Assembly (NCBI RefSeq): GCF_006345805.1
Contig: NC_043014.1
Coordinates: 52,390,001-52,454,000, forward strand
DNA: 64,000 nucleotides
Origin: Octopus sinensis
Taxonomy: Eukaryota
Direction of reading: 5' to 3'
Below the pieces are notes generated by a model. The model ran no database searches and had not been told where the DNA came from. It saw only the letters and a list, made by a program, of their open reading frames with translations. Each line of letters starts with the position of its first letter. Position 1 is the stretch's first letter. This document shows positions 7,661 through 56,907 of this stretch, in pieces. The position numbers and the translations under genes were made by a program.

Positions 7661-7872
7661 ATATATATATATATATATATATATATATATATATAATTAG
7701 GGTTCAATAAAAAAAATTTACTTTACCACACACCGAACTTTTAGAAATAGCAGCCAAAAGATTTTAGCTATTTCTTCTACTATAAGAAAAGTCTCCTAGA
7801 CAATGTATACTCAAAAATAATTCACGTAGGTATAGAGGGAAAAATAACGAAATATCACACGTACATCTATTA

Positions 7873-7956
7873 CTTGAGAACGCGGTTTCTGAATTAGTTG
7901 GATAAATAGATGCTAGAAATACATACTCTTATCAACATTTCCTTCGTCAGCCCAAG
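7873..7956 (-). ncRNA. Type I hammerhead ribozyme motif (PLE pseudo-LTR-like)
   Basis: Minus strand: CUUGGG-CUGACGA-A-GGAA...UUCA-GAAAC-CGC-GUU^CUCAAG. 6-bp stem I, canonical core, one mismatch at the base of stem II. The host element runs into (TA)n at ~7696. Confidence 0.7.
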
Positions 7957-8612
7957 ATTTCGTTTGGTTTAAATTTGAGAGCATTAAAAATCGTGTATAT
8001 TCATATACACACACTTATGTTTCATATAAACAATTTACAACAACAGAGTACCTGGGAGAAGAGGCTAATTGTTTTGAATCTAGAAGTCTCTGTAGTGTTT
8101 AATACATTCGTTTTGAATTGCATACACACTATCCTGAATATAAACTTGAATGCTTCCGCTACGCTCTGAAAATCATTAGTGTAGTAAATGATAGAGATGT
8201 AGAAATATTCAAATCAGCTAAAATAACAACGTAATATCGATATAGTGTTTTCTATCTCACCATCGAGTTGATAAGTTCTGCCTGTCTTTGAAATGGACCG
8301 TGTTTCCCAAGCACTACATCTTGAAGAGGTTTTACCTGGACGAAGCACAATACCCAAAAGCGTTTGACCACAATTACTCACACACAAACACATTATGCAT
8401 GTCATTTGAGTAATATATATCAGAAGATATTTGCCCAAACTCAGGCACATTGTAATAGGTGGTTGATAAGTGAATCTCTTAACGCTACACCAATGCAGTT
8501 TCATTTTCCATTAGGAATCTCTCAAATATCTAAAATGTGCGTACAGCCCTTGATTCCATATACCACAGTTTATACTGCAATGCATGTATGAAACGAATCC
8601 ACCCAGCTAGAT

Positions 8613-8925
8613 CAGGGGTTCTTAATCAATTTTTATCTATGGACCTCTATGATTCCTATTTTATTCTGGTGGATCTCCATCGCCATTTTATGTTTTTTAG
8701 AAACTCAAAATTTCCATTGCGTTTTACACAGTGTGTGTAGGTTGAACAATATAAAATGTTAAAGAAACCGCGTAGTTGTGGGTTTTTTTAATTTTACTAT
8801 AAATACGTCTAAAGCAAAATATTTTCATAAGATATTTTCTTAAGATAAATCCCAATTTACTATTTTGCTGCATGGACTTATATAGACCCCTAGGGGCCAT
8901 TATAGAAACCGGTTGGGAACCACCG
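8613..8925. mobile_element. hAT/Charlie-type MITE
   Basis: Imperfect TIRs CAGGGGTTCTTAA / GGTTGGGAACCACCG. Degenerate 8-bp TSD AGCTAGAT / AACTAGAA fits the NNCTAGAN preference of Charlie elements. Confidence 0.75.
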
Positions 8926-9645
8926 AACTAGAACCCTGTAAAACGCAAATTACTGACTCAGAAAAGAAGCCAGCGTGTAATGTTTCGTACACTAAAAGAA
9001 AATTCCGAAACTTTTAGGGCCAAACGATTTATTTATTGTCATCTTTACTGCAGAGATGGAGAAAAATATAACAGACATTTATATTACTATTGTGACAAAC
9101 AAAATCACAGACGCAAGAGTATAATTTCTTGTAAAGAACAGTTGTCTGTGAAATATACGAAAGGCAGCAAAATCAATTTCATGGCAGTAAAATTTATATA
9201 TGCGTGTCAGTTATGCATTTTCATATCTCTAGTAAATATCTACATACAAAGGTTTACCAAGGCAGGAAAAAAAACAGTTAATAAAATGTTTAAACCTAAA
9301 AGCAGTGCTGTTAATTGATACATCAGTAACTCAATAATTACAGAGACTATGTTGATCAAACGGTGTTAGAACTATCAAACCGATGTACGTTTTTTTTTAT
9401 TATTTATAATATGACTTCTGTCATGGAGGCTTTGTATTGTGGTGCGTATTATTAGAGTTAATTTACCTGCCATAAGTTGTGGATAATTAGGTGTTAACGT
9501 AAGAGAAATTTCGGATGTAGTCATTTTATCACGGTTGCCCCATTAGTGAGTAAAATAACAATACACCGCTTTATATACAAATTAATTGGTCATACACACA
9601 CACACACATATATATATATATATATATATATATATATATATATAT

Positions 9646-53643: not shown

Positions 53644-54091
53644 TTCTCTATTCTTTTATTCTTTTACTTGTTTCAGGCATTTGACTGCAGCGATGCTGGA
53701 GCACCGCCTTTAGTCGAGCAAATCGACGCCAGAACTTATTCTATCGTGCTCTTTTGCCCACCCAGGAACGTAAACACACCAGTATCGGTTGTCAAGCGAT
53801 GTTGGGGGACAAACACAGACACACAAACATATACACATACACACACATATATATTATATATATATATATATATATATATATATATATATATATATATATA
53901 TATGTATATATATATGTAATATATATACGACGGGCTTCTTTCAGTTTTCGTCAATCAAATCCACTCACAAAGCATTGATCGGCCCAAGGCTATAGTAAAA
54001 GACACTTGCCCAAGATGCCACGTAGTGGGAATGAACCCGGAACCATGTGGTCGGTAAACAGGCTACTTAACACACAGCCACTCCTGCACCT
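53644..54091 (-). mobile_element. SINE B
   Basis: Match to 9646-10051. Confidence 0.9.
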
Positions 54092-54623
54092 ATATTCATA
54101 AATTTATTTTTTTATAATTTTCTGATATTGCCATATTAATCACCTAGTAATATCTAATTTTAGCTGCTTTAGTTATTTTCTGTTAATTATTTCCTTCTAT
54201 ATTTCTGACATATTATTGACAAAATCATTCTATTATAAATTTTAAATACTCCTAACCAATTATGAGGGCTCTTAAACATTTTCCCTAATCTATAAAAAAA
54301 GCCGAAATGAATATTAACGGTCCAATATAAATTTCAATCTCCTGTATTTAAAAATTCCATAGTCCCTTATTTGGATTTTCAAACCCGCTTGCTTCTTACT
54401 TCTTATATGAAGTTTAAAACTAAGTCAAATACACTAAGCTATAGAGAGAACATTAACTATACTTCCAAGTTATATATGTCATCACTTAACTGTTATCCGT
54501 CAGTCGTGTTTTAAATAGACATGACCCCTACAACAATTACATTAAAAAAAAATTAGTAAGAACATAATATGTATGTCTAAAGTCCACTTCCTTCTTTATT
54601 AAGTTCTTGCTTTTTGCTGATCG

Positions 54624-54703
54624 TGCTACTGAGGAGTAGTCTTTGACAACTCAGTTTCTTAAAACGAATTTATTGTCTTTCTGTGCGAAACGATCGTCTG
54701 GCG
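54624..54703 (+). ncRNA. Type I hammerhead ribozyme motif
   Basis: UGCUA-CUGAGGA-GUA...UGC-GAAAC-GAUC-GUC^UGGCG. Palindromic stem III ACGAUCGU, GUC triplet, 5-bp stem I. Confidence 0.7.
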
Positions 54704-56907
54704 AATTGAAAGAATATTTCTCCCTGTATTAACATCCAATCTCGTCCATTTATGAAAAATATTATTGAATTTGTCGAACCTCGTTGTATAACATAAATCA
54801 TATACTTGTGTGTGCGTGCGTATGTGTGTATATATATATGTGTGTGTGTGTGTTACTTACGTGTACTTAGGAAACGCCACAGGGATGCCCATTTAAATAT
54901 TGCATGCGTTGCATACATTTCATAGATTTATGTGTATCTTAATATTCATATATTAATATTTCTACTTATACATGTGTGTATATGAATATATATATATATA
55001 TATATATATATATATATATATATATATATGTATGTATGTATGTATATGTATATATCTGTGTATGTGTGTTTGTGTGTATGTCTGTGTCCGGTGTACATGT
55101 GTGTGTTGTGCGTGTCTGATTGTATCTCTATTGTATGAATTCAGTTATATTTCCACCTATTATCTCTTTAATTATGAAATTATTTCCATTTTTATTGAGA
55201 CTTCTTGAAAACACATAAACCCAATTTGTTATGAAATGTTTTTCCTTCTTATTCATGACCTAGTATTTCCGGCTTACACTCGCGCTTATTATGCGTATGT
55301 ATATATATATATATATATATATATATGTGTGTGTGTTTGTGTGTGTGTGTGTGTGTCAATGATTTGTTCTGTAAGTGACTGACACACTGACACATACTAT
55401 AATATTAGCTGTGTGTATTTCTTTTCGGATTAACGTATGACATAACCTCTGAATTTAATATCCTTTGTGTCAAACCCTCTTCATTTATTCCGCTAAACCA
55501 CTTCCGATAAAGAACATCGGCCATTTAATTCAATATAATTTATTTCGTCTATATATTGCTTTCAACACGTCTATATAAAGAAAAAATAATTATATTTTTC
55601 TCTTATATTTTCTAATGATTTTTTTTTAATATTTTATTTTATGTTTTCTTTCAATCAGCATCTTATTGATTTCCTCGTATGCCTGAATGAACAATTTTTC
55701 ACTCGATACATTAAATGATACTGCCATACGAATATCTCTTATACATCTAATATCACTAATGAAATTAAGTGAAATTAAGTGAACTTCAGTTTAAGTAATG
55801 TAAAATATTATTGCTTACAGTAATTTTTCATTCTGTAATGAAGTCAAAATTAACTTTTGATGTAGGTTTTTCAAGATGGCAATGAATCCTAATTCATCAT
55901 TAGAGATAAATATTTAAGAGACATATCAATTTGTCTCTTATTAATGTCTGAACATTAACGTGTCTTGGTACATAGAACAAGAGTAGAAATTCGTCTCTTG
56001 ACGGCATATGGAGGCATGCGTAGCTACATACTTCCATACACACACGCATATATATATATATATATATAGATATATATATATATATAGATATATATATGTA
56101 TATACAGAGATAGATAGATAGATAGATAGATAGATATGTATGCATATATATATATGTATGTATGATCGCAGTCAAGTGTTTGGAACCACTAATTGACTAT
56201 ATATATATATATATATATATATATATATATAAGGTATGTGTGCATATATGCATGCATGTATGTATAATCCATTACGATGTGTAAACGCAGGACAGAGGTC
56301 GCATGAGAACACACCCATGAAAAGTATTTTAGTCGATCATATCTAATGCAATTTATTTCTTTTCTGTAATTACTTTAACAATTTTTATGTATCAAATGGA
56401 CAGGTAAATTGAAATGCGATATGAGTTTATAAGAGGAAGCAATCGTACAGTGAGGTAATGAGGAGAGAGAGAGACGCAGGCACAAATAAATACACACGCA
56501 CACGTATACATATATACAGAGAGAGAGACAGACAGAGGCAGTGAGAGAGAAAGGGATAAAGAGCAGTTAAAGCGGAACTCTAACGTGTTGAATAGCCGTT
56601 GTTGTTTCAAATAAAAATAAAATACAAACAAACGGACTTTTCTCTTTGGTACGAAAATGATGTAAGGTGAGCGAGAGAGATGAAGTTTTATTAGTTATTG
56701 TGGTCAATACAAAACTAGTTTTGCGATTAATGCACAAATTAGATAAATCAATTTTTTTTAAAAATCAACTTAATTTAGAAGTACATTTTCCGATCTTCAG
56801 TTGCAAACATCATATTTTAAGCAAAAATTTAATAACTATAAGATATATTTACCTTCATTTATCCACATCAAATCGTAACCCAAGGTATTCAGTATATTAG
56901 GAAAAAA

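Follow-up and report, generated by a model that had tools for sequence, protein, structure and literature searches.

What are the hammerhead ribozyme motifs that recur beside TA microsatellites in the octopus genome, and what left them there? The question is raised by a window of 64,000 nucleotides from Octopus sinensis (RefSeq assembly GCF_006345805.1, contig NC_043014.1, positions 52,390,001 to 52,454,000; coordinates below are those of the window), which has an AT content of 66% and is rich in TA, TG and CA repeats. A sequence-only reading of this window had proposed a diverse set of unrelated short elements, derived from Penelope-like elements (PLEs), that carry type I hammerheads and dock at (TA)n tracts. 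The analysis reported here favours a related answer with high confidence. The motifs are very probably PLE-type minimal hammerheads located in the 3′ ends of several PLE families (termed A, B, C, D, E and H), left as truncated and inverted stubs beside (TA)n, likely by an endonuclease that nicks TA repeats and by reverse transcription that starts shortly downstream of the motif.

Motifs were sought with a strict descriptor comprising helix I, the core CUG[AU]NGA, a helix II of 3 bp or more (which may be flanked on either side by an unpaired base), GAAA, a helix III with nearly no loop, and H. When 3 bp or more are required in helix I, the window contains six strict motifs, against a mean of 0.12 (maximum 1) in 50 dinucleotide shuffles of 500-nt blocks; at 4 bp or more, it contains two, against 0.02. 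A first descriptor, which limited helix II to 40 nt, had returned no motifs in the window and the limit was then raised, and U6 was permitted on account of family H. Since the window and its families served to tune the final descriptor, a 950 kb genome sample (95 stretches of 10 kb at round coordinates of the 2.72 Gb assembly) is the fairer test, with the permitted U6 a caveat there too. This sample contains 15 strict motifs against 0.5 after shuffling (helix I of at least 4 bp), or 20 against 2.1 (at least 3 bp). Extrapolation from it gives ~40,000 intact strict motifs genome-wide.

The six strict window motifs lie at 7873–7956 (−), 16775–16854 (−), 17029–17108 (+), 54624–54703 (+), 27326–27360 (−) and 27597–27631 (−). 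All have the type I layout, with helices I and II paired and a palindromic helix III, and each element named in the sequence-only reading proved to belong to a dispersed family. The proposed density of one motif per 5 kb holds in this window; in the genome sample the six families gave 29 BLAST matches, ~1 per 33 kb. The diversity of hammerhead carriers is likewise genuine, as the 113 distinct strict motifs in all loci collected, which were selected by the descriptor, form 27 clusters with differing paired sequences. At the family level, A, B, C, D and E carry C3 U4 G5 A6 N7 G8 A9, G12 A13 A14, A15.1–U16.1 and H17. A6 is present in 65/65 copies of family A that cover the core (among 73 matches, all 65 reading CUGAAGA), 55/56 of B, 44/44 of C, 23/24 of D and 32/34 of E. 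An Rfam cmscan of the window gave no hammerhead family among the best 150 of 303 rows, which held microsatellite- and hairpin-driven matches. Further hammerhead families with a palindromic stem III were seen outside the window, at L169:2200–2243 (−), L219:2382 (−), L200:9224–9847 and in L049, L082, L145, L178, L288, L314 and L319.

Chance motifs that happen to adjoin TA tracts would be one explanation, given that TA tracts are 2.7 times denser in the window than in the sample (3.36 vs 1.23 per kb), that a very loose descriptor found 15 matches in the window against 6.4 in shuffles (maximum 13, not significant), and that one of the motifs originally named, at 12249, fails the strict descriptor. 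The strict counts given above stand against it. Furthermore, TA lies within 300 nt downstream of 8/13 strict motifs, against a background of 16% (p = 3e-4), and upstream of 3/13 (p = 0.35). Paired bases have also changed together: in an alignment of eight A-type copies, 97.1% of cells are paired and 6/18 pairs have changed on both sides, although the structure was drawn from one of the eight, which favours it. Controls in which the alignment was slid by −3 to +2 gave no double-changed pairs, and slid controls as a whole gave 0–2. Shuffle counts, TA adjacency and compensatory changes thus refute chance, the probability of which is negligible.

To what do the motifs belong? Copies of each family were collected by searches within the genome, of which only the best 30–40 candidates were scored each time, which confines the loci examined to the closest copies. 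The first-look candidates (H 3087, B 2268, A 1441, C 1409, E 127 and D 30) are accordingly not copy numbers.

Family A occupies 16559–16904 (−) and 16979–17170 (+) in the window. The longer arm is the 3′ end, or pseudo-long terminal repeat (pLTR), of a Hydra-type PLE; it carries the motif at 16775–16854 and reaches ~238 nt beyond the GAAA box before ending in (TA)n. The shorter, inverted arm carries the motif at 17029–17108, in which helix II has 11 bp and is interrupted and stem III is an 8-nt palindrome, and stops ~76 nt past the GAAA box, also in (TA)n. The motifs that the sequence-only reading had placed at 17023 (+) and 16768 (−) are therefore both family A motifs, in the two arms of a single insertion and not in separate elements. 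Inverted family A arms occur in many loci, and the best copies are 98–99% identical to each other.

Upstream of the family A end lies a 3′ untranslated region (UTR) of ~700 nt, followed by sequence encoding a GIY-YIG endonuclease (EN) and a reverse transcriptase (RT). A 200-aa RT query gave 150 scored matches, many of them in open frames of 800–923 codons, and 7/9 extended A-type loci contain open reading frames (ORFs) of 899–914 codons. In three loci (L287, L296 and L298) direct-orientation motifs flank the ORF on both sides, in the arrangement pLTR–ORF–pLTR; L287 and L298 also have an inverted arm. A search for full-length PLE partners, suggested by the earlier reading, thus yielded such copies with an 899-aa frame of Hydra-type RT and GIY-YIG. 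No RNA dataset is on record as containing family A. Contigs of four sequencing runs, guessed to be RNA, span all 30 bins of the family A pLTR–ORF stretch; they show no start, end or intron and give no evidence on expression or cleavage.

The seven long family A ORFs encode RWL (7/7), SDKT (7/7), YRDD (6/7) and CNLCxxE with CxH, as CPH or CLH (7/7). They lack CCHH and have a single cysteine in the GIY-YIG core. At the protein level 114 relatives were found at E ≤ 1e-20, of which 99 carry DK[TS]; N-terminal RWK is present in 52/114 and RW[KRL] in 73/114, with RWL in family A itself. The cysteine linker CxCX5C was not found upstream of GIY-YIG in any of the 7/7 long family A ORFs, and a CxCX4-8C linker is present in 58/60 of those relatives (of the 114) with a locatable EN start. 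Pfam gave no match for the family A or family H proteins, and PF26215 is carried by many relatives of family A. On these motifs, by which its clade was assigned, family A is identified as the end of a young, protein-coding Hydra-type PLE. Because the linker is missing, it is filed as a Hydra-like variant.

The comparison with the Hydra clade draws on parts of the survey by Craig et al. (2021, PMC8557442). As described there, Hydra-clade elements share with family A one ORF encoding RT and then GIY-YIG, the DKT motif, the absence of CCHH, and CxxC with CxH near the C-terminus. They share with the window ends a 3′ hammerhead with a palindromic stem III of 3–4 bp, insertion at (TA)n and inverted, 5′-truncated copies. 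Family A differs in lacking the CxCX5C linker, in having RWL in place of RWK, and in an ORF of ~900 aa, with a Ser/Asn-rich insert, against ~700 in most relatives. The helix II regions of families A and E, at 50–60 nt, are longer than in the Hydra rows of File S2. The stem III forms in Files S1 and S2 are of a like kind, one being identical to that of family C, and the listed motif of Hydra-1_oBim matches, by eye, none of the six families.

The window also contains a Hydra-type PLE protein remnant at 41241–42262, with 42–75% identity to the family A protein. It comprises RT pieces at 41241–41435 (−) and 41874–41969 (−) and an inverted downstream piece at 42047–42262 (+). The PLE RT remnant that the sequence-only reading had recognised in the window thus consists of genuine RT and EN pieces; no hammerhead was found beside it. 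The two RT pieces are split by a very abundant short repeat made of two parts, with a CA/TA tract inside, found at 41436–41858 and also at 9651–10051, 53667–54086 and 59710–59992. Inverted repeats of 240 nt, without a hammerhead, lie next to the remnant at 42305–42874.

Family C is the end of a second Hydra-type PLE. One arm, at 22005–22163 (−), is the 3′ end, holds the 3′ half of the motif (22113–22136) and ends in (TA)n; the inverted arm, at 22163–22207 (+), holds the 5′ half (22165–22181, core at 22170). The hammerhead that had been read across 22113–22180 is consequently a family C motif that is intact in other copies, while the window copy is split by the inversion junction and has no contiguous motif. 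In locus L142, an inverted family C end is fused to the C-terminus of a GIY-YIG EN (Hydra-type, 42% identity to A), followed by a UTR of ~1 kb and a forward motif. The coding link of family C is this EN C-terminus, at this one locus.

Family H is distinguished by its core, in which position 6 is U in 92/93 copies that cover the core (98 matches) and position 7 varies (61 A, 14 U, 11 C, 5 G and two gaps). The register of this core is fixed by a sister family, seven loci of which have A6 and a helix I that is changed but paired. These loci are L338:6341 (−), L361:3111 (−), L225:8613 (+), L354, L236, L146 and L157, and 4/7 of them read CCGA for CUGA (U4C).

One family H copy in the window, the 3′ end of a Neptune-type PLE at 51262–51452 (+), has the core CUGUAGA at 51330 with one helix II mismatch and runs straight into (TA)n. 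A tandem duplicate at 27236–27694 (−) consists of copies at 27236–27423 and 27507–27694, 271 nt apart, each ending in (TA)n; masked self-BLAST, chosen for window repeats because the repeat finder was swamped by microsatellites, aligned 233 nt at 100% identity, and both motifs (27326–27360 and 27597–27631) have the core CUGUCGA. A further copy at 38841–38977 (−) has the core CUGUAGA at 38960, and its 5′ part lies at 39713–39764, beyond an inserted non-PLE RT fragment. Two copies are damaged: 17257–17363 (+), at G8 of its core (17280), and 38711–38789 (+), in both its core (38736) and stem III. A 3′ fragment at 12684–12774 (+) has no hammerhead core. Six family H copies had been said to share the type I layout; the 3′ half of the motif is indeed present in six, while the core reads CUGUNGA and is damaged in two (17280 and 38736), and those at 27356 and 27627 are one tandem duplicate.

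The RT fragment inside the 38841–38977 copy extends over 38990–39761 (−), contains a 171-aa frame and separates that copy from its part at 39713–39764. Its frame, 39246–39761 (−), was rejected as a partner for the hammerhead elements, since it interrupts a family H copy and has no match to PLE proteins; it gave a weak DUF6451 match, below the cut-off, and is presumably of RTE type.

Upstream of the motif, 8–9 of 30 family H loci share more than 800 nt that encode the RT thumb and EN. The coding stretch includes ADKG, YIDD, CSRPRCCTC and YIGQT, and a pyrimidine-rich UTR lies between it and the motif. CSRPRCCTC, CISCSLC, YIGQT and EH...HF, in L240/L294, L292 and L293, provide both the CX2-5CxxC linker and the CCHH-type EN of Neptune elements. 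Family H is accordingly read, from its motifs, as a Neptune-type PLE end, probably of Neptune and not of Nematis. It resembles the Neptune clade (Arkhipova 2006, as summarised in part in PMC8557442) in ADKG, YIDD, a CX4CxxC linker before GIY-YIG, two core cysteines and TA-flanked insertions, and differs in the U at position 6 of its hammerhead core. No 5′ pLTR was seen for family H. Many copies (L001–L030) begin at a common 5′ boundary ~80 nt upstream of the core, and longer copies exist; the boundary may be a preferred truncation point or a template start.

Families E and D are older. The family E copy at 54560–54806 (+), of ~80% identity, has its motif, with an 8-nt palindromic stem III, at 54624–54703 and a TG/TA tract after it, and homology reaches upstream to ~54100. 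Family E is probably a Hydra-type PLE as well: in two loci it sits antisense beside a Hydra-type RT, and one of these, L090/L205, has a CxCX5C linker. The L090 piece gave a weak GIY-YIG match in Pfam (E 0.054). Family D, with ~70% identity between copies, is represented by a decayed inverted pair at 12153–12319 (12153–12225 on the minus strand and 12231–12319 on the plus strand). Its motif has the core, an extra A, a 4-bp G–C helix II and, as the commonest form (11/27 copies), an AUAU stem III. The motif noted at 12249 (+) is a decayed member of this family; the stem III of the family is AUAU and not ACAUUGU as had been read, and the window copy has no helix I pairing left. A GIY-YIG piece in one D locus (L127) was rejected as a partner since it is not contiguous with the motif.

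Family B is of a different kind. The window copy at 7690–7993 (−) is part of a 582-nt head-to-tail unit, and its 3′ end enters the (TA)n tract at 7657–7694. Its motif, at 7873–7956, has a helix I of 6 bp, a long helix II region and a near-palindromic stem III; in one subfamily the helix II region is shorter and stem III forms a perfect 8-nt palindrome. Two motifs lie 582 nt apart in L099/L300, and in 22/30 loci the sequence further upstream is again the part of the unit that follows the motif, with eight loci starting at about the query. No shared same-strand ORF was found upstream (0/30 loci). Two of these loci are the arms of a single insertion, and in one locus a weak Neptune EN fragment lies 300 nt upstream. 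Family B is best read, from its organisation, as an internally deleted, non-autonomous, retrozyme-like PLE that a PLE protein probably copies in trans. Like non-LTR retrozymes and non-autonomous PLEs, as far as these are covered in PMC7229834, 10.64898/2026.07.22.740005 and PMC8557442 (Chlamys elements such as MRC1), it is protein-less and head-to-tail, with one type I hammerhead per unit. In contrast to the retrozymes of these sources, its unit is 582 nt and not a monomer of ~300 nt, its motif is PLE-type and not canonical, and it occurs mostly as 1–1.7 units with inverted arms and TA-docked ends, known here from DNA only. A second candidate retrozyme-like unit was seen in L200, where two identical motifs are spaced by 546 nt.

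Might all of the families be such independent, non-autonomous short elements, spreading through circular RNA and borrowing a PLE enzyme? This suits family B, with its 582-nt unit, its longer-than-unit insertions and its lack of an ORF, and the common start of many family H copies could be taken in the same way; retrozymes are, moreover, described as PLE derivatives in the accessible portions of 10.64898/2026.07.22.740005 and PMC7229834. In A, C and H, however, long copies lead upstream into RT and/or GIY-YIG coding regions of their own, 5′ truncation varies from copy to copy and inversions occur, and the circular RNA is hypothetical here. For the set as a whole, this explanation is judged unlikely. 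The sequence-only reading had spoken of short derivatives in need of a partner class; that description appears to apply to B, whereas A, C and H, and probably E, are truncated ends of their own coding PLEs. The initial recognition of the motifs as PLE-type hammerheads is supported.

The docking at TA is near-total in family A. Among 71 anchor matches, 63 terminate and 62/63 abut TA, with ends clustered at +69 to +82 and +223 to +239 from the GAAA box; the remaining eight read through into the ORF and have no TA tract there. Family B 3′ ends lie at TA in 25/29 cases, clustered at ~+190 to +217 and +287 to +308, those of C in 18/20 and those of H in 33/41. In the unselected 950 kb, family H meets TA at the 3′ end in 13/17 matches and at the 5′ end in 4/17, against a background of 3.2%; 3′ ends at TA number 3/5 for A, 1/5 for B and 0/2 for C, and D and E gave no matches. 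Control repeats in the same sample have TA at the 3′ end in 6/72, 21/103, 1/87 and 9/29 matches, and one control gave no matches. In the window, TA or TG tracts follow most of the ends. The proposed (TA)n-flank enrichment is thus upheld and is 3′-directional.

The suggestion that the elements also help to explain the abundance of microsatellites finds little in its favour, as family 3′ ends abut only 17 of the 557 merged TA loci in 950 kb (~3% of tracts). The other hammerhead families, among the 27 clusters, would raise the share explained. A stronger form of the idea is that the elements make the TA tracts themselves, by slippage or tailing of the RT at insertion, and so seed microsatellites. 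It would account for the near-total TA adjacency of family A ends in both arms of inverted insertions, and the end sites do fall where the template has short AT-rich patches. The eight read-through copies, by contrast, reveal no (TA)n in the family A template at these sites, recognisable ends of the six families adjoin so few TA loci, and truncated 5′ ends also meet TA (the 4/17 unselected H copies), as expected for insertion into an existing tract. Self-made TA is therefore regarded as quite improbable.

Under the favoured explanation of the motifs as PLE 3′ ends, the element endonuclease would nick TA repeats and reverse transcription would begin a short way downstream of the motif, the end clusters being putative start sites at short AT-rich template patches. 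Early stops would leave short stubs, and a strand switch would yield the inverted arm. Because the motif lies within 60–300 nt of the start sites, almost every abortive insertion would carry it. Such a mechanism has a precedent in PMC11167929, of which the relevant parts describe a PLE protein that nicks AT-rich DNA, starts reverse transcription in its own RNA downstream of the hammerhead and assists cleavage.

How might the hammerheads act? From the literature, the palindromic stem III may pair between two copies in a tandem transcript, with cleavage as a dimer and possibly with the help of a protein. Computed stem III self-duplex energies (in kcal/mol) are −10.3 for A, −10.0 for E, −7.4 for C, −6.4 for B, −1.7 for H and +1.6 for D; none folds alone. 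These modelled values would fit the dimer model set out in the portions of PMC4209133 consulted; dimer work on PLE hammerheads is summarised in part in PMC6765202. As inverted arms lie on opposite strands, they could not form a dimer within one transcript, and only direct tandems could. Most solo copies, including those of the window, are likely inert.

Several observations weigh against this account as a whole. No intact family H ORF was found in three extended loci, where the frames are broken, and no coding partner was found for family D; the link of family E to a Hydra-type PLE is suggestive, given that it comes from two loci with an antisense RT. Only 5/24 family E anchor matches abut TA, the anchor not always being the true end, and two control repeats (those with 21/103 and 9/29) also have some 3′ TA. 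That TA was already present at the target sites is inferred. The minimum-energy monomer folds of five window copies are not hammerheads. Conservation of core and other columns is 0.953/0.923 in H, 0.886/0.850 in D and 0.898/0.912 in E, and since the core columns are barely above the others, the copies appear to decay neutrally. Cleavage, circular RNA and transcript ends of these motifs are predictions, and the sole PLE tested in vitro, according to the same parts of PMC11167929, inserts without needing cleavage.

The window also contains further repeats. A MITE-like (miniature inverted-repeat transposable element) element has 273-nt inverted repeats at 24238–24510 and 25351–25623, 93% complementary and 840 nt apart, with a CUGAUGA/GAAA pair that lacks helix I; in the 950 kb sample it gave no match of 45 nt or longer other than at stretch ends. 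Another short repeat, highly abundant (184 matches in 950 kb) and used as a control, lies at 25881–26036, 33958–34333, 35443–35810, 36450–37128, 40934–41097 and 43075–43945, with a local tandem of ~184-nt period at 43075–43628. Other repeats are a long GC-rich imperfect hairpin at 32002–32285 (96-nt arms, 91% complementary, TA-rich centre), a tandem of ~146-nt period at 44849–45514, and a 257-nt direct duplicate at 51926–52321 with TA tracts at its bounds.

How much of this is new? The motif class is real and is largely explained by published PLE biology. In the sections of PMC8557442 drawn on here, Hydra PLEs are already listed with canonical hammerheads, including forms with a palindromic stem III, and with (TA)n insertion in almost all families; the octopus family Hydra-1_Obim is among them. 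The same sections name the cysteine linker as the presumed targeting part and, for the Neptune linker, hypothesise that it mediates the microsatellite bias. Cervera and de la Pena (2014, PMC4209133) described genomes that each hold thousands of solitary minimal hammerheads left by truncated PLEs. The metazoan PLE motifs in the parts of that paper covered share with those reported here the type I layout, the short helix I, the extra nucleotide after A9, G10.1–C11.1 and the palindromic helix III, as well as opposite-strand pairs 100–700 bp apart and many families per genome. They differ in that the core variant described is U3–A8 and not U6, and microsatellite docking is not discussed in those parts. 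Among the entries listed, literature searches found no report of hammerheads in octopus, none of a U6 core and none of a linker-less PLE of this kind that docks at TA; Lunse et al. (2017, RNA Biol), on PLE hammerhead variants, may already list U6. A natural variant at this position, A6C, has lower activity in Mg2+ according to the passages available from PMC3088659 and PMC7151607.

The linker-less, TA-docking family A, the U6 core of family H and the 582-nt unit of family B are thus modest new variants. It is tentatively proposed, with rather less than even confidence, that family A is targeted not through a linker but by its GIY-YIG core or by base pairing between nicked TA DNA and AT-rich RNA patches. 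Family H, which would number tens of thousands of copies, would on the same proposal be spreading with a U6 hammerhead that either works as a natural variant or is retained as a fold that does not cleave. Alternatively, a linker-bearing relative could be mobilising family A in trans.

In a genome where Hydra- and Neptune-type PLEs abound, the main pattern is unremarkable, and the stubs should be annotated as PLE ends; family B adds a 582-nt retrozyme-like PLE derivative. Families A and H bear on two questions left open in the parts of PMC8557442 cited, the role of the linker in microsatellite targeting and the purpose of PLE hammerheads. Family A bears on the first because its best copies are 98–99% identical and have long open frames and no linker, yet end at TA. 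If the proposal for the two families is true, A and H would offer natural tests of what directs PLEs to microsatellites and of whether their hammerheads have to cut.

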